Origin: Desulfocapsa sulfexigens DSM 10523
GTDB lineage: Bacteria; Desulfobacterota; Desulfobulbia; Desulfobulbales; Desulfocapsaceae
NCBI RefSeq assembly: GCF_000341395.1
Contig: NC_020304.1
Coordinates: 210,001 to 242,000, forward strand
DNA: 32,000 nt
Reading direction: 5' to 3'
Below are positions 20,418 to 31,101 of this stretch, in pieces. Position numbers and translations under genes: made by a program. Position 1 is the stretch's first letter, and each line of letters begins with the position of its first letter. The notes under the pieces were generated by a model. The model did not search any database. It had not been told where the DNA came from and was given only the letters and a program-made list of their open reading frames with translations.

Positions 20418-21821
20418 TTGGACGGAAAAGTTCTTATTGCAAACAGGGGCGAAATCGCCATTCGGATCATGGAGGCCTGCAAAGATCTAGACCTTGACTA
20501 CGTTGTGGTTTACACCGATGCTGACCAGGACTCCGAGCACGTTCAACGTAACAGGACCAGTGGTCCCGATCAGAATGCCTGGCGGATTAACAGCTACACG
20601 GAACCCAACGATCTCTTTGCCGTAGCCACCCATACGGGTTGTACTGCCATCCACCCTGGATACGGCTTCTTTTCAGAAGATTTTCGTTTTGCCAGACGGG
20701 CAACAATTCGTGACCACTCACTTATCTTTATTGGTCCAAGCTGGGAAGTCATCAGAAATCTTGGCGACAAAATCAACACCAAGAAAGTTGCCAACGAACT
20801 GCACATCCCCACCATTCCCGGAACCGACAGCCCTATTTACAACGAAATGGAGGCCGAGGAAATTGCTTTCCATTTACTTGAAAGCCAGAAGATACAGGAA
20901 ATCGAACGTCCTTCCATTCTCATAAAAGCTGCGGCTGGCGGCGGCGGAATGGGTATTGAAGAAGTTACGGAAATAGCCCAGTTCCGACGCATTTATCGTC
21001 AGGTACAGAATTATGCCAAACGACAGTTTGGAGATGGCGGAGTACTCATTGAGCAGTGCCTCACCGACTACAATCACCTGGAGGTGCAGCTGCTCTGTTC
21101 CCGTCACGGTGAACGTATCCACTTCGGATCCCGCAACTGTACTATCCAGTCCACCGGGCGCCAGAAACGAGTGGAGGCCGCGCCAGGCTTTCATGGATCC
21201 TGTTTTAATTACGATTTTGACGAGAAAAAAGTACTCGACATGATAGTCGAATACTCGCTCAAACTTGCCGCACATGTCCGCTACGACAATGTCGGCACCT
21301 GGGAATGGATCGTCTCCCGTTCAGGACAACCCTACCTGCTCGAAGTAAACACCAGGATTCAGGTGGAAAATGACGTCTCGGCCCGTATCAGTTATCTCGA
21401 TGACAAACATCCAAACCTGATCCGTGAACAGATCAGACTGGCTCTCGGGGAAAAGATCGGCTACAAACAGAATAGTGTGGAATTTAAAGGAGCATCCATT
21501 GAACTGCGTATCGTGGCAGAAGACACCAGACGCGGCTTTGCCCCCTGGATCGGCACCATTACTGAATTCAGCTTCCCAAAGCACGACTGGTCTGTTGTCT
21601 ACACCCATGTGCCCTTTGACCGTCCGTACACCATTCCAAGCGAGTATGATCCGAACCTTGCCCTGGCGCTCGTCTGGGGCGAAAACATGGATGAAGCGAA
21701 AAAACGTGCGGCTCGTTTTATTGATGAAGTACAAATCAAAGGAAAGGACTCCCAGGGTGGCGACATTATAACGAATCTTGACTATTTAAAAGTTAACCTG
21801 GACCGGCTGTTGACCTTCTAA
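20418..21821 (+). CDS. accC: Biotin carboxylase-like ATP-grasp enzyme (divergent AccC)
   Basis: TTG start after AGAGGA. N-terminus KVLIANRGEIAIRIMEACKDL, glycine-rich loop KAAAGGGGMGI, EVNTRIQVE. No BCCP/biotinyl domain at either end. Confidence 0.8.
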   Translation: MDGKVLIANRGEIAIRIMEACKDLDLDYVVVYTDADQDSEHVQRNRTSGPDQNAWRINSYTEPNDLFAVATHTGCTAIHPGYGFFSEDFRFARRATIRDHSLIFIGPSWEVIRNLGDKINTKKVANELHIPTIPGTDSPIYNEMEAEEIAFHLLESQKIQEIERPSILIKAAAGGGGMGIEEVTEIAQFRRIYRQVQNYAKRQFGDGGVLIEQCLTDYNHLEVQLLCSRHGERIHFGSRNCTIQSTGRQKRVEAAPGFHGSCFNYDFDEKKVLDMIVEYSLKLAAHVRYDNVGTWEWIVSRSGQPYLLEVNTRIQVENDVSARISYLDDKHPNLIREQIRLALGEKIGYKQNSVEFKGASIELRIVAEDTRRGFAPWIGTITEFSFPKHDWSVVYTHVPFDRPYTIPSEYDPNLALALVWGENMDEAKKRAARFIDEVQIKGKDSQGGDIITNLDYLKVNLDRLLTF

Positions 21822-21849
21822 CAAATCCAACCGAAACATATATCACAAT

Positions 21850-24126
21850 ATGATAGAACTACTTAAAGCGCTCCAGAAAATTGAAGAGCGTATAAACTAC
21901 CTGATACAGATCAAAGACTTCACCAACTGGGGCAACCTTTTCGGATTCCAGGAGACCTGCACCAAACTCAAGCAGAACCCCTACGATTTTCACGAGGAGC
22001 AGTTTGCCCAGGAAATCCGTAAGCTTGACGAGTCAATCTCATTCCTGGAAGAACGGGCTGAGGAGCAGCTGACCCCCATGGAACGGGTTCGCATCGTACG
22101 AACCAAAGAACGTTTCAGCCTCAAGGATATCCTGGAAAATGTCTACGAGGACTATACGGAACTTGGCGGACAGGATGAGGCCAACATCGACCCCGCAATG
22201 GTCTGCGCCAAAGCTACCATTGTCAGGAAGATTAAAGGAAAGCCCTACACGGCAACGGTCATGGTTATTGGCCAGGAAACCGGGCACGGGGAAGAGTTTC
22301 GTAATGGTGGGTCATGCAGGCCTGAGGGGAATGAAAAAGCATTGCGCTACATGAAAGTTGCCGAGACAGAGGGTATCCCCATTCATTTTTATATCTTCAC
22401 CCCTGGCTCCTTCCCCATAGAAGAGTACCCGGGTGCGGCCCAGCAGATCGCCCGTAACATCTACACCATGACCAAGCTGCGGGTCCCGTCGGTGTCACTT
22501 ATTTCAGAAGGTGGCTCTGGTGGTGCTGAAGCCATTGGACTTTCAGACTTTCGCCTCATGTGTTCTCATGGATACTACTCAGTAATCTCCCCTGAAGGAG
22601 CTGCTGCCATTGAAGGGAGAATAAAGGAGGGAGAGAAAGTCCCCAAAGAACTGGTTGAAGTGTGTGCCGAACGCCTGAAGCTCACTGCAAAAGACAATCG
22701 ATCCATGGGGACCATTGATGCCATCGTTAAAGAACCCCCTCTTGGTGCCCGTCACGATGATTTTGCCTTTTTTGCTCAGATCCGTTCGGAGATCACCCGG
22801 GCAACGGATAAAGTTGTACTCAGTGCAAAAAGCTTCAAAGCCTTCCGCGACTGGGAGAATAGAAGAAGAAAGAAAAAAACCGAACGGAAACATCTAGCCG
22901 TTGATATCCCCTGGGACCTTAACCCGGACGAGCAGCGGAGACTGCTTGCACTGCGCTCAAAAAAATATCGGGACATGGCCCTTGCAGGTTTTAGTGGCCA
23001 TCCTGCACCCACTGAAACCTTCTTTAAGCAGTTCCAGGAAAAGAGTGAAAAGGTCTATTACAACCTGCGTTATGATGTATTAAAAAATTCCCAGAAGCAG
23101 ATCAAGAAAGCGGTTCGAGATATGTCCGGCGAAGGTTCGGTCATAATCAAGCGTCTCTCGACCCCGTTGATCACGGTAAAAGAGTTCTTCGCCAAAGAGG
23201 GAACAAAACAGGGACCACCTCTGCGCATCACCCATAATACATCCGTACCTATACAGACATCTCAGCCCATGCACGACCCGCTGGAATTGACAGATACCTA
23301 CACCAGCCCTCGAGCGAATGAGGACAGAACCGTAACCTGTCCGAACAGCGGTACCCATGGTTGCAAGGATCTCTGGATACCTGATTTGTATGGCGAATTT
23401 GGAGGTGTGTGTGAAAACTGTGGCCACCATTTTCCACTTGAATACAAATGGTACCTGCATAACATTTTTGACCCGAATTCCATCTTCTTTTTCAATATGG
23501 ATATCACCTCAGGAAACCCGTTGGGATATAAGGGTTTTGATGCACGACTGAAGGACGCCAAGAAAAAAACCGGCCGTAATGCAGGCAACATGACATTTAC
23601 TGCCAATGTGATGGATATCAAAATCGTGGTCTCCATGCTCTATCAGGATTTTCGCAGCGGCACCGTCGGTTCCGCAGAAGGAGAAAAATTTGTTCAGGCC
23701 TGTGAGCTGGCTGCAAGAAAGAAACGCCCCCTGCTCTCTTACGTTCATACCACCGGCGGTATCAGAATCCAGGAAGGTACTTTCGGAGTCACCCAGATGC
23801 CCAAATGCACCATGGCGGTTCGTGAATATATTGATGCAGGCGGACTCTACATCGTTGTCTACGATAATGACTCCTACGCAGGACCAGTTGCCAGTTTTCT
23901 CGGATGCTCACCCTACCAATTCGCCATCCGCTCCAGCCGCGTCGGATTCGCAGGGCCGCGGGTCATCAGAGAAACAACGGGAACCGACATTCCACCGGAT
24001 TACCACTCAGCCCGTAACGCCTTAAAGCGCGGTCACATTCAGGGAATATGGGATCGCAGGGACTTCCGTCGCAATCTTTACAAATCCCTTATGACCATGG
24101 GAAGCCACAACCTTTATTACAGATAA
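21850..24126 (+). CDS. Fused carboxyltransferase, AccA-like N-terminal half and AccD-like C-terminal half
   Basis: The N-half aligns by eye with AccA (FIFTPGSFP..., SEGGSGGAEAIG, YSVISPEGAAAI). The C-half aligns with AccD, including a Cys-ribbon (CPNSGTHGC...CENCGHHF), TTGGIRIQEG and GFAGPRVIRETTG. About 150 aa of basic linker lie between them. Confidence 0.85.
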   Translation: MIELLKALQKIEERINYLIQIKDFTNWGNLFGFQETCTKLKQNPYDFHEEQFAQEIRKLDESISFLEERAEEQLTPMERVRIVRTKERFSLKDILENVYEDYTELGGQDEANIDPAMVCAKATIVRKIKGKPYTATVMVIGQETGHGEEFRNGGSCRPEGNEKALRYMKVAETEGIPIHFYIFTPGSFPIEEYPGAAQQIARNIYTMTKLRVPSVSLISEGGSGGAEAIGLSDFRLMCSHGYYSVISPEGAAAIEGRIKEGEKVPKELVEVCAERLKLTAKDNRSMGTIDAIVKEPPLGARHDDFAFFAQIRSEITRATDKVVLSAKSFKAFRDWENRRRKKKTERKHLAVDIPWDLNPDEQRRLLALRSKKYRDMALAGFSGHPAPTETFFKQFQEKSEKVYYNLRYDVLKNSQKQIKKAVRDMSGEGSVIIKRLSTPLITVKEFFAKEGTKQGPPLRITHNTSVPIQTSQPMHDPLELTDTYTSPRANEDRTVTCPNSGTHGCKDLWIPDLYGEFGGVCENCGHHFPLEYKWYLHNIFDPNSIFFFNMDITSGNPLGYKGFDARLKDAKKKTGRNAGNMTFTANVMDIKIVVSMLYQDFRSGTVGSAEGEKFVQACELAARKKRPLLSYVHTTGGIRIQEGTFGVTQMPKCTMAVREYIDAGGLYIVVYDNDSYAGPVASFLGCSPYQFAIRSSRVGFAGPRVIRETTGTDIPPDYHSARNALKRGHIQGIWDRRDFRRNLYKSLMTMGSHNLYYR

Positions 24127-24181
24127 TTTTCATACATTCACCCCCCTGTCCAACAGCTTTCCGAATAAATGGAGATAAAAA

Positions 24182-24532
24182 ATGTTTGAAGAAAAACGTC
24201 AATTCAAACGTATTGCCAGTAATGTTCGTGTAGGATTCAATAAACAGCAGGTTGACAAAGAGACGGAAGAATATTTCCAGGGGGTAGCTGAAGATTGTGG
24301 ACTCAGTGGTATGTTTCTCGCAACCGAGCATCTGATGCCCAAAGGAAGCGTGGTTTCACTCAACTTTCAGTTTATCGATGAAGAGGGAGAGCAGGTTATG
24401 ATCCAGGCCCAGGCTGTTGTTCGCTGGACTCAGCGATTTCGTAAGCCAAAGGGAATGGGGCTGGAATTTTTCGAATTCAACGGACTGGGAGACCGAAACT
24501 TTGAGGAATGTTTGAGGCTTTTGTTAAAATAA
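24182..24532 (+). CDS. Single-domain PilZ protein
   Basis: GGAGA RBS. RxxxR motif (RQFKR) near the N-terminus, a DCGLSGMFL segment in place of the usual D-x-S-x-x-G, and C-terminal GMGLEFFEF. Confidence 0.7.
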   Translation: MFEEKRQFKRIASNVRVGFNKQQVDKETEEYFQGVAEDCGLSGMFLATEHLMPKGSVVSLNFQFIDEEGEQVMIQAQAVVRWTQRFRKPKGMGLEFFEFNGLGDRNFEECLRLLLK

Positions 24533-24540
24533 CCGTAACT

Positions 24541-24695
24541 GCTCAGGTGGATAGTCTGAAGTGCGCTTTTGCTTACGCAAAAGCTGGAAGGCTAAAGGTA
24601 AAAGCCTTCGGGCCCTCAGAGTCCCCACTTCGTTCCGCTTACCTGGCCCGTCTGTTTTACCTTTAGCCTTCAGTCTTCGGCCTACTTACCTGAAC
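24541..24695. other. Highly structured palindromic intergenic element (candidate ncRNA or REP/MITE-like element)
   Basis: Perfect 8-bp hairpin gcttttgc-ttac-gcaaaagc (24565-24584). Perfect 17-bp inverted repeat gaaggctaaaggtaaaa (24587-24603) / ttttacctttagccttc (24655-24671), enclosing a 6-bp cgggcc/ggcccg helix. Outer imperfect arms gctcaggt (24541-48) / acctgaac (24688-95). Confidence 0.6.
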
Positions 24696-24759
24696 AATTG
24701 CACCCCCTCCCGTACCCAATTCTCGTCCTCGATGAAGCCACCACGCCACATACCCGCCA

Positions 24760-25164
24760 TCATTCCACATTGATGGTCATCAGAGATCCATCCTTGGGAC
24801 TTTTGCAGCGTATGACAGCAGTAGCCCCCCTGCCTGGAAGAGGTGACTTATAGTTCAAAATAATATGCTGTACCCCCGGAGCAGGATTTTTAAATAACCA
24901 CTTTGCCTCATTTTTCCCCGACGAAAATTTACTGTACTCAGGACTTGCGCTCCGCACCTGGATTCCTCCAGGGATGCGCTGATTAACAATAATGGAACTC
25001 GGCGCAGGATTCTCAATAATAATCTCCAGAACACTTCTCCCAGCACTGTTCTCCAGGTACCTGGCCTGAACCCCCTCGGCCCTGACCTCAGCACTCAGAA
25101 CCAGACACACACACGACAGCAGCAAAACCCAGATATTCGGGAACCCTCTTCTATTCTTTTTCAT
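24760..25164 (-). CDS. Small secreted protein, paralogous to the extracytoplasmic domain of the upstream regulator
   Basis: The ORF-track ORF is trimmed to the ATG at 25164 (AGGAG 8 nt upstream), because the long version overlaps the upstream gene. Signal peptide MKKNRRGFPNIWVLLLSCVCLVLSAEVRA. Confidence 0.65.
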   Translation of the reverse strand: MKKNRRGFPNIWVLLLSCVCLVLSAEVRAEGVQARYLENSAGRSVLEIIIENPAPSSIIVNQRIPGGIQVRSASPEYSKFSSGKNEAKWLFKNPAPGVQHIILNYKSPLPGRGATAVIRCKSPKDGSLMTINVE

Positions 25165-25189
25165 ACTTTTTACTCCTGTCTCATTACCA

Positions 25190-26086
25190 TCATGGAATAA
25201 TATCAAAAGTTGACAGTTTCGCATCCCAGCGATACCCGGATCCCATCCAGATGGATTCCACTTCTTCAACATTAACGCCAAGACCTTCCACACGACCAAA
25301 ATCGTCATACACGGCGAGCAACTCTTCATCGTCAATGATGTTATTTTTATCGCTGTCAGCCCAGTGAAACTCCAGCAAACGGATGCGACTTCTGCCATCC
25401 ACAGTGATTTCCTCACGGCTCGACTGACGCACGAGAAGTGTGCCAGTGAAGGAAAGAGGCTCATTTTCTGTCTCCTCTCTGGCTACACACCGCGCTATAT
25501 AGGAAAAAACTCTTTTGCCTGGACCATCCTTATCTATCCATTTCAAAAACCCGCCATCCACCACCGTGGCCTGAGGCATGGAAGCCACAACATTGCAACC
25601 TGCCGCCAACTGCTCCTTAAAGAGCAGTGAGGAGTCTTTTCCCGATTCAAAGACAACCTCAACAACGACCGGGAAAGGATGCCCAGATACTGTATGGGCG
25701 GGCATGCGTCTCTGGGCCGAGAGTTGCAGGACATCAGCACTCCTGAAGGTAATAATAAAAAAGAGCAGGACCCCAAGCAATAGAACGTTTGCAGCTATAA
25801 ACAGCAGAGTCTTTTTACTTCTCGAGGCAGGGGAGACAGCCTCAACCTGCTCTGCCTTTTCTTCTGGAACGGCGAGAATCTCCGACAGAGAAACAGCCAG
25901 GGCATCGGCCAGTTTTATACCATTCTCCTCTTTCAGGGTAGGGGCTTCCTGACGTTCCCATCGGGAGATAGTCTCGGTGGTCACACCAACTGCGGTTGCC
26001 ACGTAGAGCTGTGTCAGGTTCTGTTCTTCACGAAGAGCGCGTACCTTAGTCCCGCTGACCTGCACCATGGCTATCCCTGATTTCAT
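25190..26086 (-). CDS. Membrane-tethered XRE-family HTH regulator with extracytoplasmic domain and EF-hand/dockerin-like loop
   Basis: N-terminal HTH (VRALREEQNLTQLYVATAVGVTTETISRWERQ). One TM helix (TLLFIAANVLLLGVLLFFIITF). A C-terminal ~190 aa domain containing DSDKNNIIDDEE. The true start may be the second ATG at 26068 (MVQVSG...). Confidence 0.7.
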   Translation of the reverse strand: MKSGIAMVQVSGTKVRALREEQNLTQLYVATAVGVTTETISRWERQEAPTLKEENGIKLADALAVSLSEILAVPEEKAEQVEAVSPASRSKKTLLFIAANVLLLGVLLFFIITFRSADVLQLSAQRRMPAHTVSGHPFPVVVEVVFESGKDSSLLFKEQLAAGCNVVASMPQATVVDGGFLKWIDKDGPGKRVFSYIARCVAREETENEPLSFTGTLLVRQSSREEITVDGRSRIRLLEFHWADSDKNNIIDDEELLAVYDDFGRVEGLGVNVEEVESIWMGSGYRWDAKLSTFDIIP

Positions 26087-26247
26087 CCTTTTTCGTCCTG
26101 ACTAAGTAAATGGCAGTTTTCGTTACAATTCAAATCCAACCTACGCTATTTTCCACAGTTTACAACTTTCTTTCATATATTTCGAGGCAAAACAAGAACT
26201 CAACAGACAATGTAACACACTGATATTACGAAACCAGCCAGTCACGG

Positions 26248-26280
26248 AAACCCGACATCTCCCGATATCGGGTTTTTTAT
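26248..26280 (+). terminator. Orphan intrinsic terminator-like hairpin with no upstream plus-strand CDS
   Basis: aaacccga (26248-55) / tcgggttt (26268-75) followed by tttat. It contains the perfect 12-nt palindrome cccgatatcggg (26261-26272). Confidence 0.55.
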
Positions 26281-26358
26281 TACCTCATTGTGACCTACAT
26301 TGAAGTCAAAGGAAAGGGCATTGAGCCCATCACAAACAATCCACCACCGGAGGAAAAC

Positions 26359-26571
26359 ATGAGAACAGTAACAGCATTGATTACAGCCCTGGCCCTCACC
26401 GTAATGATCAGCGTAACTGCACAGGCAGCCACTCTTAAATGTACGGTTGAAAAAGTTGAAGGAAATGTAATAACCATGGATTGCGGTGACAAAGCCGCAA
26501 GCCTTGCCGCAGGTACGGAGGTCAAAGTAAAAACGGCCACAACAAAGGCTGCCGCAATCGAAGGCTGCTAA
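26359..26571 (+). CDS. Small secreted Cys-containing protein (70 aa precursor)
   Basis: Trimmed to the ATG at 26359, 6 nt after GGAGG. Signal peptide MRTVTALITALALTVMISVTAQA. Mature ~47 aa with three Cys, the last being the C-terminal residue (..AAIEGC). Confidence 0.6.
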   Translation: MRTVTALITALALTVMISVTAQAATLKCTVEKVEGNVITMDCGDKAASLAAGTEVKVKTATTKAAAIEGC

Positions 26572-26585
26572 GCAGTATTACCTGG

Positions 26586-26617
26586 GGCTGGAAGCTCACA
26601 GAATTGGGTTTCCAGCC
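26586..26617 (+). terminator. Hairpin downstream of the small peptide gene
   Basis: An 8-bp stem, ggctggaa / ttccagcc, with a 16-nt loop. The T-tract (gtttttc) is displaced by about 10 nt, so function is uncertain. Confidence 0.35.
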
Positions 26618-26752
26618 TCTGACGGAGTTTTTCTCTTCATAAAAACACTCGTTAATTATGGCTTAGCGTAGAAAAGAGTGGTAGCACATCTGTTTTCCTG
26701 ATAGGGTCTTTCCTTTTTTCACCAAAGACAATTGAAAGAACAAGGAGTTCAG

Positions 26753-28060
26753 ATGAGTTTTAAACAGTTTCAGTTCATGGCACAGATCAACAGCAACATC
26801 AGCACCTGCGGCTATGAGCACCCGACCCCCATCCAGGAAAAAGCCATCCCTGAAGTGATGAGCGGGAAAGATATCCTGGGACTTGCCCAGACAGGAACGG
26901 GTAAAACCGCTGCCTTTGCTCTCCCCATTATCGAAAAATTAGCCGGGGGGCCACGGGGCAATGTCCGAGCGCTTATCATAGCACCAACCAGAGAACTCGC
27001 AGAACAGATTACCACAAGCTTTAAGGAACTTGCAGCAGACACCGGGCTACGAATCCTTGCTGTCTATGGCGGTGTGGGAAAAAAGCCTCAATTCGATGCA
27101 TTCAACCGCGGTGTTGAAATCCTCGTCGCCTGCCCTGGCCGTCTTCTTGACCATTTAAACAATCATGATCTCAAACTGACCAGTGTGGCAACACTCGTTC
27201 TCGATGAGGCAGACCAGATGTTCGACATGGGATTTTTTCCCGATATCCGTCGTATTCTCAAACACCTGCCGTCTAAGCGTCAAACCCTCCTCTTTTCTGC
27301 CACCATGCCGGCCGATATCCGTAAACTGGCAGATGAAACACTGACCAACCCGAAAGAGATACGGATCAAACTAGAGCAACCCCTTGACCTTATTACCCAG
27401 GCACTCTACCCGGTCTCAAAACGACAAAAATCCGATCTCCTCGTCCATATCCTTCAAAAGGACCCTGTGGAAGGATCGACTTTGATCTTCACCCGCACCA
27501 AATACGGCGCAAAAAATCTTGCTAAAAAGCTCGAAAAATCTGGATTCTCCACCTCTGCACTTCAGGGAAACATGTCACAAAACCAGCGAAACATGGCACT
27601 GGAAGGTTTTCGGGACGGGACATTCAAGATACTGGTGGCAACCGACATCGCTGCTCGTGGTATTGATGTGTCACGGGTAGCCCAGGTTGTCAACTTTGAT
27701 CTTCCCTCAACCGCCGAAGCCTACACCCATCGCATTGGACGGACAGGACGTGCCGAACGCAGTGGCCGTGCCATCAGTTTTATGTGCTACGATGACCAGG
27801 CAATGGTCAAAGCCATTGAAAAACTCCAGGGAAAGACCATCAAACGAATCGCTATTGACGGTTTTTATATGGAAGAGGCCAGTGAACAACAGGAACAGAA
27901 AGGAAACCAGGTTCCCCGTAAGCACAATCGCAGGCCAAAGAAACAGACAGGGCCGCGTCCTTCCGGCAACAGACAAAAGAAACCTGCCGCCAAGGCAAAA
28001 AAATCTACAGATCCAAAACGCGCCTCCAATATCTTTGGCCTCGGTCAAAAAGGGAAATAG
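26753..28060 (+). CDS. rhlE: DEAD-box ATP-dependent RNA helicase (RhlE-like) with basic C-terminal tail
   Basis: Start moved to the ATG at 26753 (AAGGAG 5 nt upstream). Q-motif region, AQTGTGKT, DEAD (VLDEADQMF), SAT, HRIGRTGRA. Lys/Arg-rich tail. Confidence 0.9.
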   Translation: MSFKQFQFMAQINSNISTCGYEHPTPIQEKAIPEVMSGKDILGLAQTGTGKTAAFALPIIEKLAGGPRGNVRALIIAPTRELAEQITTSFKELAADTGLRILAVYGGVGKKPQFDAFNRGVEILVACPGRLLDHLNNHDLKLTSVATLVLDEADQMFDMGFFPDIRRILKHLPSKRQTLLFSATMPADIRKLADETLTNPKEIRIKLEQPLDLITQALYPVSKRQKSDLLVHILQKDPVEGSTLIFTRTKYGAKNLAKKLEKSGFSTSALQGNMSQNQRNMALEGFRDGTFKILVATDIAARGIDVSRVAQVVNFDLPSTAEAYTHRIGRTGRAERSGRAISFMCYDDQAMVKAIEKLQGKTIKRIAIDGFYMEEASEQQEQKGNQVPRKHNRRPKKQTGPRPSGNRQKKPAAKAKKSTDPKRASNIFGLGQKGK

Positions 28061-28278: not shown

Positions 28279-29232
28279 ATGCTTGAGACGCTGGACACTC
28301 CTGGATCCACCTTTCGCCCTTCGTACCGTCTGCGGCTGATATTTTCTCCGGTCCTTCGATCAGTGTCATTATGCATATTGTTATGGCTACCATTATGCTT
28401 TCCACTAACCGCTTCAAGTCAGGATCTTCAGGAAATCAAAAATTCAGGTGTTTTACGCCATCTGGGAATCCCCTATGCCAACTTTATAACCGGAAGTGGA
28501 GACGGCCTAAACATTGAACTGGTACAGGGATTCGCATCGTACATTGGGGTCAACTACCTGTTCATAGCAAGTGACTGGAACACTATCCTTGGCGATCTCA
28601 CCGGACGTCATGCCTCTCGCGATGAAAACGGTGCCAGATATCTCGAAAGCACCCCTGTGAAGGGTGATATCATTTCCACCGGGATGACAGTCCTCCCGTG
28701 GCGCCAGGCTGTTATCAATTTCTCAAACCCCACTTTTCCATCGGCCGTCTGGCTGCTAGCCCGCTCCGAATCCAACCTGCAGCCAATAAAACCGTCGGGC
28801 TCAATCGAAGCTGATATTGTTGCCGTCAAGAATTCCCTTGATGGCCACAGCGTGTTGGCCATGGAAAACACCTGCCTGGATCCCGCACTGTACAGGCTAT
28901 CGGAGACACGAGCCAATATCCGTCTGCCGAAAAAGAAAATCCGGCTCAATGAAATGGCACCGGCAATTTTAGCCCGTGAAGCGGAAGCCACCCTTCTGGA
29001 TGTTCCTGACGCTTTGATTGCCCTGGAAAAATGGCCGGGGCAGTTAAAAGTAATTGGACCCGTTTCCGCAAGGCAGGTGATGGGATCCGGTTTCAGAAAA
29101 GAGTCGCCAGAACTCCTTGAAGCGTTCAATATGTATCTAGAAAAGATCAAACGGGACGGCACCTATAACAGGATCGTGAAGAAATACTATCCCACGGTCT
29201 TCAGTTATTATTCAGACTTTTTCACAGAGTGA
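28279..29232 (+). CDS. Periplasmic substrate-binding protein, SBP_bac_3 (amino-acid-binding / MltF-like) family
   Basis: AGAGGA RBS. Hydrophobic leader SVSLCILLWLPLCFPLTA. SBP family-3-like core (GVLRHLGIPYANF..., GDIISTGMTVLPWR...). The N-terminal extent is uncertain. Confidence 0.7.
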   Translation: MLETLDTPGSTFRPSYRLRLIFSPVLRSVSLCILLWLPLCFPLTASSQDLQEIKNSGVLRHLGIPYANFITGSGDGLNIELVQGFASYIGVNYLFIASDWNTILGDLTGRHASRDENGARYLESTPVKGDIISTGMTVLPWRQAVINFSNPTFPSAVWLLARSESNLQPIKPSGSIEADIVAVKNSLDGHSVLAMENTCLDPALYRLSETRANIRLPKKKIRLNEMAPAILAREAEATLLDVPDALIALEKWPGQLKVIGPVSARQVMGSGFRKESPELLEAFNMYLEKIKRDGTYNRIVKKYYPTVFSYYSDFFTE

Positions 29233-29241
29233 TTCCAGCAG

Positions 29242-31101
29242 ATGATAAAGCGATTTCTTACATTTGCCGCAGCGCCCTTTTTAATAACCTACCTCCTCCT
29301 GCTGGTGGGATCCAGTTTTATGTCCCAGCAAAATCTGCGACAGGCCTCTGAAAGCAGCTTACGCTTTAACCTTGAAAAAAAAGCTGCCATACTCAGCTAC
29401 TTCCATTCGGAACGGGAAAACGACATCAACACTCTGGCCAGAGACCATAGCCTGGATAACTTTTTTTCCAACCGGGCCCTTGGCATGTCCATGGAATACG
29501 GCTTGCGTGCCAGTCTCATCTCAATGCGGGAAAGTTTCCAGAAAATAGTTCAAGAAAAGAAGCTCAACAATCTCCCCATTTACCTTCGTTTGCTGTTCAC
29601 GGAAAATCAGGGAAACAATCTGATTGATGTTGGATTATCAAGTGGCAAGAGCGTTCCCTGGTCGAATTCTGGTATACCCGAGACTGATCGAATTGCCTCC
29701 TTTGTCGTTATGAATGGAAAACGTATCCATGTAATCCTTACCCTCCCCTATTTTCACAAGGGCAAACGGATGGGAACAATCATCGCAGAGATCAACCGTG
29801 AGGAGGTTATTCAGTATCTGACCCATAGCCAGGAATCGGAAAACATCAAATACGCCACCATCATCGCTGACACCAAATACGTTATCAACAATGCCCCTTC
29901 CGGAAGTCCACAGCCAACTCCGCCCATTTCGGCCAATGCGACTTCACCTGTAATACAAATGCCCATAGGCGAGACTCCATTTATTTTGACGGCACAACAT
30001 GCTCACAGGGATGCACTCACTACCTTTCTTACATCACGCTGGTACCCTGTCTCTCTCATTCTTCTTACCCTTCTAGCGCTCTATTTCATAATGATTCGAA
30101 GTCAGGCGAAAGCCCACACCATGCTTTTACGCAGACAGGTTGAAGAGGCTGATCGTCAACATACCCTGATGCTTCAGAAAAATGCACTTCTTAAGCAGGA
30201 GGTGCAAAAACGACTGGACAGTGAAACACGTCTCCAGACTCTGGTAGAAACAATTCCTGATCTCGTCTGGCTGAAAAACCCTGAAGGAGTCTACCTTTCC
30301 TGTAACCCTAAATTCGAACGCCTATACGGCGCAACAGAAGAAGAAATTATCGGCAAGACAGATTACGATTTTGTCGAAAGGGAGCGGGCAGATTCATTAC
30401 GCATACTCGACCAGGAGGCTATGGATGCTGACGCCCCTCTTATCAACGAAGAGACGGTTACCTATGCTGACGATGGCCATGAAGAATCGGTGGAAATAAT
30501 ACGAACCCCTCTGCGTGACAGTGAAGGAACACTGGTGGGAGTTTTAGGGATAGCCAGAAACATCACAGCCCGAAAACAGGCTGAAGAAGAGGCCCGTTAT
30601 CTTTCTACCCATGATCCCCTGACCGGGCTTTTCAATCGCAGGATGCTGGAAAAGCGGGTAATTGAAGAAATTGACCGGGCAGAGCGTTACAACCATACTC
30701 TTTCAATCTTTATGGTGGATCTGGATCATTTCAAAACGGTCAACGACACCTATGGTCACCTGAGCGGAGATATTGTTCTCCGCCATCTGGCAAAAATTCT
30801 GGCAGTATCCATCCGCAAGACAGACTATGTCGCTCGATATGGTGGAGAAGAATTCATTGTCGTTCTCCCGGAGACACCTCTGACTGAAGCCCATGAACTG
30901 GCAGAAAGATTATGTAAAGAGATTAGAAGATACCCTATTCCACTGAAAGACGGACAGACAATCAAGGTAACGGCAAGCATAGGAGTGGCTTGTTTTCCAG
31001 AGCATCACAAATCCTGGGAAGGAATAATCGGGGCTGCAGATTCAGCGATGTATGCGGCCAAACAAGCTGGTCGAAATCAGGTGAAAATCGCAGCTCCCTG
31101 A
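29242..31101 (+). CDS. Sensor diguanylate cyclase (TM - ~230 aa periplasmic domain - TM - PAS - GGDEF)
   Basis: Two TM helices (FAAAPFLITYLLLLVGSSF; WYPVSLILLTLLALYFIMI). PAS segment (LVETIPDLVWLKNPEGVYLSCNPKFERLYG). GGDEF domain with DPLTGLFNRR, GGEEF and an RKTD I-site. Confidence 0.88.
   Translation: MIKRFLTFAAAPFLITYLLLLVGSSFMSQQNLRQASESSLRFNLEKKAAILSYFHSERENDINTLARDHSLDNFFSNRALGMSMEYGLRASLISMRESFQKIVQEKKLNNLPIYLRLLFTENQGNNLIDVGLSSGKSVPWSNSGIPETDRIASFVVMNGKRIHVILTLPYFHKGKRMGTIIAEINREEVIQYLTHSQESENIKYATIIADTKYVINNAPSGSPQPTPPISANATSPVIQMPIGETPFILTAQHAHRDALTTFLTSRWYPVSLILLTLLALYFIMIRSQAKAHTMLLRRQVEEADRQHTLMLQKNALLKQEVQKRLDSETRLQTLVETIPDLVWLKNPEGVYLSCNPKFERLYGATEEEIIGKTDYDFVERERADSLRILDQEAMDADAPLINEETVTYADDGHEESVEIIRTPLRDSEGTLVGVLGIARNITARKQAEEEARYLSTHDPLTGLFNRRMLEKRVIEEIDRAERYNHTLSIFMVDLDHFKTVNDTYGHLSGDIVLRHLAKILAVSIRKTDYVARYGGEEFIVVLPETPLTEAHELAERLCKEIRRYPIPLKDGQTIKVTASIGVACFPEHHKSWEGIIGAADSAMYAAKQAGRNQVKIAAP

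Follow-up and report, generated by a model that had tools for sequence, protein, structure and literature searches.

A candidate periplasmic co-component beside a membrane-tethered XRE-family regulator conserved in Desulfobulbia

We analyzed a stretch of 32,000 nucleotides from Desulfocapsa sulfexigens DSM 10523 (contig NC_020304.1, positions 210,001 to 242,000; hereafter the window), in which two adjacent genes on the minus strand encode a membrane-tethered regulator of the XRE family and a small secreted protein. With modest confidence, and by analogy with ToxR/ToxS and VtrA/VtrC, we propose that this pair is a conserved Desulfobulbia cassette consisting of a single-pass transmembrane (TM) transcription regulator and its periplasmic co-component. 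The proposal draws on the architecture and predicted folds of the two proteins, on the remote homology of their extracytoplasmic domains, on the linkage of the two genes and on a conserved cis-element beside the regulator gene. Newly found here are the phased GAYRTCGGG repeats that make up this element and a conserved divergent gene for a small Cys protein, which is accompanied in relatives by an open reading frame (ORF) with three CxxCH motifs.

Results

A conserved gene pair

The regulator gene (25190–26086, minus strand, including the stop codon) is an ORF encoding 298 amino acids (aa). Its start is ambiguous within the interval 26068–26086. The ATG at 26086 immediately adjoins an AAGG, and the alternative start at Met7 (26068) has an AGGGA at a better ribosome-binding-site spacing; some homologues start at the equivalent of Met7, and the residues SGxAMV ahead of it are kept in many others. 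The second gene (24760–25164, minus strand), defined by its ORF, the alignment of its homologues and an AlphaFold 2 (AF2) model, encodes a secreted DUF11-like beta-sandwich protein of 134 aa. It begins 25 nt past the TGA of the regulator gene, on the same strand, and has its own AGGAG 9 nt ahead of the ATG. A first-pass annotation, made from the letters alone, had described both genes in these terms, and the ORFs, the 25-nt gap, the AGGAG and the signal peptide of the second product were all confirmed.

Full-length relatives of the regulator number 243, the most distant sharing 33% identity, and a scan of 185,579 species genomes found a relative encoded in at least 408. The best 80 loci include Desulfocapsa, Desulfobulbaceae, Desulfurivibrionaceae, Desulfopila and other Thermodesulfobacteriota, together with metagenome-assembled genomes titled merely Deltaproteobacteria, Proteobacteria or Pseudomonadota; the regulator family is restricted to one class, the Desulfobulbia. 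A homologue of the small protein is encoded directly downstream, on the same strand, at 66 of 86 regulator loci, or 66 of 84 if two loci without room for it are set aside. Starting from the small protein, five distant representatives were looked up; four were informative, and in all four the gene stands behind that of a 295–320-aa HTH_3 protein. The gap between the two genes ranges from −4 to about 37 nt across loci, and they overlap by 4 nt in L091 and L092. Since the outer neighbours vary between lineages in the neighbourhoods compared, the conserved unit is the gene pair itself. The co-occurrence that the first-pass annotation had proposed to survey is therefore real, both at the loci with room for the small gene and at the informative distant ones.

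Architecture of the regulator

The N-terminal part of the regulator is matched by the Pfam family HTH_3 (PF01381) at aa 15–70 (E 2.4e-11, 43.9 bits, curated cut-off 23), and HTH_31 likewise passes; the remaining 200 aa match no curated family in Pfam or NCBIfam. An AF2 model calculated from 45 homologues (mean predicted local distance difference test, pLDDT, 89.5) consists of a helical helix-turn-helix (HTH) domain (aa 1–70), a disordered stretch (76–90), a long hydrophobic helix (92–115) and, outside, an all-beta sandwich (122–237) followed by two helices and a beta-hairpin (241–297). From the Pfam match and the alignment, the cytoplasmic XRE HTH extends over aa 12–70 (25877–26053, minus strand). 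Its recognition region, TQLYxATxVGVTTxTISRWE, is nearly invariant across the family and is better conserved than the sensor; among PDB sequences, a profile search gave the P22 C2 repressor and PezA as the nearest solved relatives of the HTH. The single TM helix (aa 92–115, 24 residues; 25742–25813, minus strand) was located from the secondary structure and pLDDT of the model and from the sequence. On its cytoplasmic side stand a basic RSKK and, before it, the disordered linker of aa 76–90; the length of the HTH-TM linker varies from about 20 to about 75 aa across homologues. The earlier description of a cytoplasmic XRE HTH, one TM helix and an outside domain is thus borne out by the HTH_3 match and by the modelled helix. 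As modelled, the regulator also falls within the published definition of a transmembrane transcription regulator, that is a DNA-binding domain with at least one TM region (PMC10269533).

The first part of the periplasmic region is a predicted DUF11-like Ig-type beta-sandwich (aa 120–238; 25373–25729, minus strand), assigned with AF2, Foldseek and hhalign. Foldseek matches of the regulator model include CLIPPER (9ifr, E 8.8e-7), complement MG domains, the cohesin-like 2jh2 and the CARDB domain 3idu. Behind the sandwich, the alignment and the AF2 model delimit a C-terminal module (aa 241–298; 25193–25366, minus strand) made of an EF-hand-type loop, two helices and a beta-hairpin, in which H241, W242, D244, D253, E255, L257, W280 and Y285 are invariant. 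The 12-residue loop DSDKNNIIDDEE (aa 244–255; 25322–25357, minus strand) is of the Ca-binding type, as judged from column counts in the 45 homologues: position 1 is D (D244) and position 12 is E (E255) in 45 of 45, positions 3 and 5 (residues 246 and 248) are D or N throughout, position 8 is I (I251) in 43 of 45, and position 9 is D or S. The loop thus has the length of 12 residues, the liganding positions 1, 3, 5 and 12 and the hydrophobic position 8 by which an EF-hand loop is recognized, and the motif that the first-pass annotation had picked out in a single protein is conserved in the family. A profile of the module run against PDB sequences gave 41 weak matches, of which about 40 are EF-hand proteins aligned over the loop and its exiting helix (best E 0.0068, below the curated threshold). 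Taken together, the pattern makes it reasonable to expect that the loop binds a cation. A type I dockerin was considered and rejected: there is a single loop, the second helix (aa 273–281) carries no loop motif, and Dockerin_1 does not match. Searched on its own, the outside module turned up no other architecture (a kinase or an anti-sigma factor, for instance) among the 120 best of 175 matches, which are all HTH proteins of about 290–330 aa except for four short partials (169–205 aa).

An XRE-like HTH, a linker, one TM helix and a beta-rich extracytoplasmic domain also make up RodZ, and the first-pass annotation had named a RodZ orthologue as the identification that would overturn its own. 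This likeness of layout notwithstanding, we consider it very improbable that the regulator is orthologous to RodZ, or is a morphogenetic protein of the RodZ kind with an HTH that binds MreB and not DNA. Neither HTH_25 (E ≤ 1) nor DUF4115 matches the window protein or appears in the precomputed Pfam assignments of the listed homologues, and no RodZ model matched in NCBIfam. The profile search of PDB sequences gives repressors, and no RodZ description occurs among the 50 listed Foldseek matches. In addition, the neighbouring genes (those of acetyl-CoA carboxylase, a PilZ protein and a DEAD helicase) are variable between lineages and do not resemble rodZ synteny, the family is limited to one class, and a conserved operator-like repeat, described below, accompanies the regulator gene. 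RodZ identity was therefore rejected: the domain is HTH_3 and not HTH_25, with repressor-like relatives, and both DUF4115 and the rodZ synteny are missing.

The secreted protein and its relation to the regulator

The small protein starts with a signal peptide (aa 1–29; 25078–25164, minus strand) that ends at a conserved A-E-G cleavage region. The mature protein of about 105 aa is modelled as an all-beta sandwich (AF2 pLDDT 86) and has no curated family in Pfam or NCBIfam; the motifs ARYLENS, PAPSS and AVIRCKSPxDG are conserved on its surface. Two further readings of this protein were set aside. A lipoprotein, suggested by LLSC in the signal peptide, was abandoned because the Cys is not conserved, and Cys120, which is invariant in close small proteins, cannot be a family-wide redox site since it is a Tyr in the most distant homologue (L005).

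By eye, the first-pass annotation had aligned this mature protein with the first part of the regulator's outside domain and had assigned an Ig-like fold to both. Pairwise BLASTP of the two outside domains yields no alignment at E ≤ 100. Comparison by hhalign of the 45-sequence regulator alignment with a 34-sequence alignment of the small protein gives a probability of 94.9% (E 4.2e-8) and places regulator residues 141–187 on residues 45–93 of the small protein, which is the very register drawn by eye; the similarity is real but weak. With trimmed domains the probability is 96.6% (score 56, E 6.9e-10, 61 columns). A hidden Markov model (HMM) of the small protein matches 120 of 120 retrieved regulator homologues in a single register, with a maximum of 21.2 bits. 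Among 720 reversed or shuffled controls the top score was 5.9 bits, a value exceeded by 95 of the 120 regulators; the window's own regulator scores merely 4.2 bits. In the AF2 models the predicted strands of the two sandwiches correspond one to one over the full sandwich length, and both models find the same Foldseek targets, namely 9ifr, the complement MG domains 5jpn_B and 3frp_G, and archaeal chitin-binding domains. The Ig-like fold claimed for both domains is in agreement with these models and targets.

It could be argued from the BLASTP result and from the low score of the window's regulator that the two domains resemble each other by a chance coincidence of beta-strand patterns. This we consider extremely improbable in view of the hhalign values, of the single register found in every regulator and of the identical strand order. 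Because profile comparison, one-register HMM matches, strand order and common Foldseek targets all point the same way, we regard the two sandwiches as homologous Ig-like domains and, as far as profiles and models can tell, as remote homologues.

Both sandwiches also match the repeats of DUF11-bearing proteins, with hhalign probabilities of 98.4–98.5%. The regulator sandwich aligns with these repeats over 103 columns (score 86, E 1.9e-15) and the small protein over 72 columns (score 81.5, E 5.7e-15). A profile search with the small protein against 1.84 billion representatives retrieved 274 proteins at E ≤ 0.001. The best 150 are mostly stand-alone proteins of 125–160 aa; 11 are large multi-repeat proteins, and none is of regulator length. 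Single repeats of these 11 proteins reach up to 38.7 bits with the small-protein profile, compared with the regulators' maximum of 21.2 bits. All four multi-repeat proteins that were scanned match Pfam DUF11 (two of them above the cut-off), and a type I dockerin is present in one of the four. For the proteins of the cassette the corresponding Pfam matches lie below threshold: Chlam_OMP6 for the regulator (E 0.099), and DUF11 (PF01345, E 0.042) and Chlam_OMP6 (E 0.0047) for a few homologues of the small protein. On these profile comparisons, the two sandwiches belong, as remote members, to the widespread class of DUF11-type domains.

Because either sandwich resembles generic DUF11 repeats more closely than it resembles its counterpart, a specific duplication is argued against. 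The earlier claim that the outside domain of the regulator is duplicated as a secreted protein therefore survives in part: remote homology holds over the first ~120 aa of that domain, and specific copying is not supported. Nor is the whole outside domain duplicated, since the last 58 residues of the regulator have no counterpart in the small protein.

Conserved elements upstream of the regulator

An alignment of 22 loci upstream of the regulator reveals three conserved islands amid diverged DNA. A conserved block contains the predicted promoter of the regulator operon, TTGTAA-16 nt-TAGGTT (26138–26165, minus strand), which takes the form TTGAAA-N17-TAnnnT in relatives. The same alignment identifies tandem GAYRTCGGG repeats (26251–26272) as a candidate operator of the regulator. 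In the window the repeats are spaced by 10 bp and read cccgacatc-tc-ccgatatcggg, with the palindrome cccgatatcggg inside, and this tandem form occurs once in the 32 kb. The aligned loci have two or three copies, 10–11 bp apart; distant loci have arrays of the same 8–9-mer, with both direct and inverted copies and a phasing of about 10, 21 or 30 bp. Of 77 non-identical loci, 49 contain an exact GAYRTCGG in the 330 nt upstream of the regulator, and 38 of these contain at least two. The frequency expected from the rest of the same loci is about 6%, which corresponds to a binomial P of about 1e-40, a figure that is overstated because the loci are related. The palindrome to which the first-pass annotation had drawn attention in the region 26087–26358 thus belongs to a conserved cis-element. 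At the level of sequence, a conserved operator fits the nearly invariant recognition region of the HTH.

On the other strand, a predicted −10 hexamer of the divergent gene, TACATT (26296–26301, plus strand), coincides with a conserved TAcAnT block. A transcription start site (TSS) about 7 nt past this hexamer would put the centre of the palindrome near −41.5, and under this TSS a T-run occupies the expected −35 position. Such a layout, with a conserved −10 and no −35, would be of the activator-dependent type. The predicted position is reminiscent of class II activation, of which cI acting at PRM is an example.

Besides the hexamer, the third island covers a conserved inverted repeat, GGGCA-N4-GCCC (26316–26328), which falls in the predicted 5′ untranslated region of the divergent gene. 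Its role may be that of a second operator or of an RNA hairpin; its variants are few, giving no clear covariation. An Rfam scan of 24000–27000 returned nothing credible, and hence the intergenic region is not a known riboswitch or small RNA.

The divergent gene and the neighbourhood

The divergent ORF (26359–26571, plus strand) encodes a secreted protein of 70 aa, which is the likely regulated target. Behind its signal peptide is a mature part of about 47 aa, KCTV..DCGDKA..VKVKT..AIEGC, with three Cys, the last of which is C-terminal; it belongs to no Pfam family. Homologues are encoded divergently upstream of the regulator at 49 of 86 loci (for example L001 5486–5701 and L002 5584–5793), including loci that have no sandwich gene downstream. 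In all eight distant loci inspected, an additional ORF of 150–190 aa lies between the Cys-protein gene and the regulator, on the strand of the former (among them L037 4173–4772, L043 1107–1673, L082 4158–4673, L040 4271–4729 and L088 760–1284, all minus strand). The encoded protein combines a hydrophobic N-terminal segment with three CxxCH motifs, as in a secreted three-CxxCH cytochrome c, and that of L088 gives a weak match to Pfam Cytochrom_CIII. Because a divergent secreted Cys protein and a three-CxxCH protein are found here, the regulon is likely to be periplasmic and redox-flavoured.

Other features of the surroundings were also recorded. At Desulfurivibrionaceae-type loci without the sandwich gene, a convergent small Cys-rich ORF (..CFKCxHFYITHEPSHPYGCQAMxFK..) is present immediately 3′ of the regulator (L040 5890–6123, L042 5896–6204, L047 3070–3375 and L051 5896–6204, all minus strand). 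In the window, genes for a biotin carboxylase, a 758-aa ACCA-type carboxyltransferase and a 116-aa PilZ protein lie side by side at 20418–24532, and the same trio flanks the gene pair in L001; the carboxyltransferase has an internal CxxC..CxxC and may be an AccA-AccD fusion. On the opposite side, the interval 28279–31101 encodes an SBP_bac_3 solute-binding protein and then a PAS-GGDEF diguanylate cyclase. Components of cyclic di-GMP signalling are accordingly found on either side of the cassette, the PilZ gene (24182–24532) on one and the diguanylate cyclase on the other.

Discussion

Proposed mechanism and its alternatives

In the model that we favour, the regulator would sit N-in, with its XRE HTH about 20 residues from the membrane and, outside, the DUF11-like Ig sandwich followed by the small module with one EF-hand-type cation-binding loop. 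From the membrane it would bind the phased GAYRTCGGG repeats in the divergent promoter region and control the gene of the small periplasmic Cys protein, together with that of a triheme cytochrome c in many relatives; it would probably control its own operon too. The geometry of the divergent promoter (palindrome near −41.5, conserved −10, no −35) suggests activation of the class II type. The co-transcribed secreted sandwich would act on the outside domain of the regulator as a co-sensor, a stabiliser or a competitor, so that the pair, though made of other folds, would correspond in function to ToxR/ToxS or VtrA/VtrC.

Several observations weigh against this model. No small gene is adjacent at 18 of the 84 regulator loci, mainly of Desulfurivibrionaceae and Desulfopila type, so that the partner is not obligatory in cis, and the homology of the two sandwiches, as deduced from sequence, gives by itself no ground to expect that they pair. 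As for the putative cation site, Pfam EF-hand_6 matches the C-terminal module with an E of 0.066, below its cut-off, and in the AF2 model the loop is preceded by a strand and not by an entering helix; for this reason, and because there is one loop only, the module is neither a canonical EF-hand pair nor a dockerin. At the DNA level, a simple promoter consensus scan missed the promoters deduced from conservation, including the predicted −10 and TSS. The element ending in the T-run may be a weak hairpin terminator and not an operator; a simple terminator scan did not call the palindrome and T-run a terminator. Finally, autoregulation is uncertain, since in close relatives some 135 nt separate the repeats from the predicted promoter of the regulator itself, which is downstream of them.

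The loci without a small gene also bear on the most serious competitor of this model, a stand-alone one-component transmembrane regulator, next to which the sandwich protein would merely be co-expressed, would be structural or would bind some other partner. They tell us that the regulator exists without an adjacent copy of the small gene; moreover, the two sandwiches are not mutual nearest relatives, and DUF11-type domains are common in functionally unrelated surface and periplasmic proteins. Against it stands the linkage of the genes: wherever it was examined, at the 66 loci and at the four informative distant ones, the small protein is encoded directly behind the regulator, with short gaps or 4-nt overlaps that suggest coupled translation. 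The surface motifs of the small protein are, in addition, unusually conserved for a passive sandwich. On balance, a stand-alone regulator seems to us less likely than a co-component pair.

The disordered and variable HTH-TM linker raises a different possibility, that the tethered regulator is inactive until regulated proteolysis frees it, cleavage at site 1 being governed by the outside domain together with the small protein. This scheme, modelled on anti-sigma factors or on eukaryotic membrane-bound transcription factors, is compatible with the co-component model, and control of stability by the periplasmic partner has been proposed as the mode of action of ToxR/ToxS and TcpP/TcpH (PMC9214523). 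We nonetheless judge it quite improbable, as no protease gene is conserved in the neighbourhoods compared, the sequence bears no mark of a cleavage site, and ToxR, CadC and BcrR, which are characterised bacterial transmembrane regulators, work from the membrane (PMC10269533).

A more specific version of the co-component model can also be formulated, in which the pair is a non-homologous counterpart of ToxR/ToxS and the output of an XRE activator is set by a cation-dependent, cohesin/dockerin-like contact in the periplasm. The contact would be made between the sandwich-plus-EF-loop module and the free DUF11-like sandwich, possibly also with the Cys protein, and would couple the state of the periplasm (Ca or another metal, redox or sulfur) to the expression of the cytochrome and the Cys protein. 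In this detailed form the proposal is unlikely, and we put it forward as a speculation.

To our knowledge, membrane-tethered factors with periplasmic partners have been studied almost solely in enteric pathogens, and solely with OmpR-type DNA-binding domains. If the co-component model is true, the same logic would have been built independently from an XRE domain and Ig-like sandwiches. The host class is environmentally important and includes sulfur disproportionators. The cassette offers testable handles, namely a candidate operator, a candidate target in the small periplasmic Cys protein (often near a triheme cytochrome) and a candidate cation site. Should the regulator control periplasmic electron-transfer proteins, it would give a rare handle on regulation in poorly tractable organisms.

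Comparison with known systems

P22 C2 is among the closest solved relatives of the HTH by sequence, which relates the regulator to repressor-activators of the lambda cI/P22 C2 kind. These proteins, however, are soluble and dimerise by their C-terminal domain, whereas the regulator is anchored in the membrane and its candidate sites consist of phased 9-mers in direct or inverted orientation. An XRE-type protein of the membrane is known in BcrR of Enterococcus faecalis, which senses bacitracin within the membrane and has no large outside domain and no partner. Like the regulator, BcrR combines a DNA-binding domain and TM segments in one protein, and it acts from the membrane, as is expected of the regulator (PMC10269533); it differs in having four TM helices (PMC10269533, Table 1), whereas the outside module of the regulator belongs to no curated family.

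For the extracytoplasmic parts, the nearest relatives are the DUF11 (PF01345)/CARDB repeats of large surface proteins, which both sandwiches match at 98% hhalign probability. One of these proteins, P0228 (464 aa), carries a type I dockerin (Dockerin_1) behind three DUF11-like repeats, in parallel to the sandwich and Ca-type loop of the regulator. In the cassette, by contrast, the sandwiches occur as single copies, one fused to a transcription factor and the other free, and both stay below the Pfam threshold; dockerin repeats differ also in that the Ca-type loop of the regulator is not duplicated.

The closest parallel in organization is with the co-component systems ToxR/ToxS, VtrA/VtrC, TcpP/TcpH and PsaE/PsaF (PMC9214523). 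In both cases a bitopic, membrane-tethered factor comprises an N-terminal DNA-binding domain, one TM helix and a periplasmic domain, and the partner gene lies directly downstream, sometimes overlapping, in a conserved two-gene cassette. The building blocks are different. The DNA-binding domain is of the XRE/Cro-C1 type, where the known systems have an OmpR-type winged helix; in the periplasm, an Ig-like DUF11-type sandwich with an EF-hand-type loop is found instead of the alpha-beta fold of the VtrA/ToxR superfamily; and the partner is an Ig-like sandwich secreted by a signal peptide, in place of a membrane-anchored lipocalin-like barrel. The lineages differ as well, Desulfobulbia here and enteric bacteria there. 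The known systems have no detectable homology to the window pair, and theirs is an obligate periplasmic heterodimer, whereas the window pair is known from sequences and single-chain models. Because DNA-binding domain, periplasmic fold and partner fold all differ, the cassette, as read from sequence and models, is not a member of the VtrA/ToxR superfamily.

The first-pass annotation knew of no characterised system of this composition. That statement stands, although the kind is known. A survey of 50,302 transmembrane transcription regulators found the HTH to be the commonest DNA-binding domain and single-pass proteins to be the most prevalent (PMC10269533), and periplasmic partners are exemplified by ToxR/ToxS and VtrA/VtrC (PMC9214523). 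The cassette is thus a lineage-restricted, uncharacterised pair, whose architecture is new in its components and whose principle is already known.

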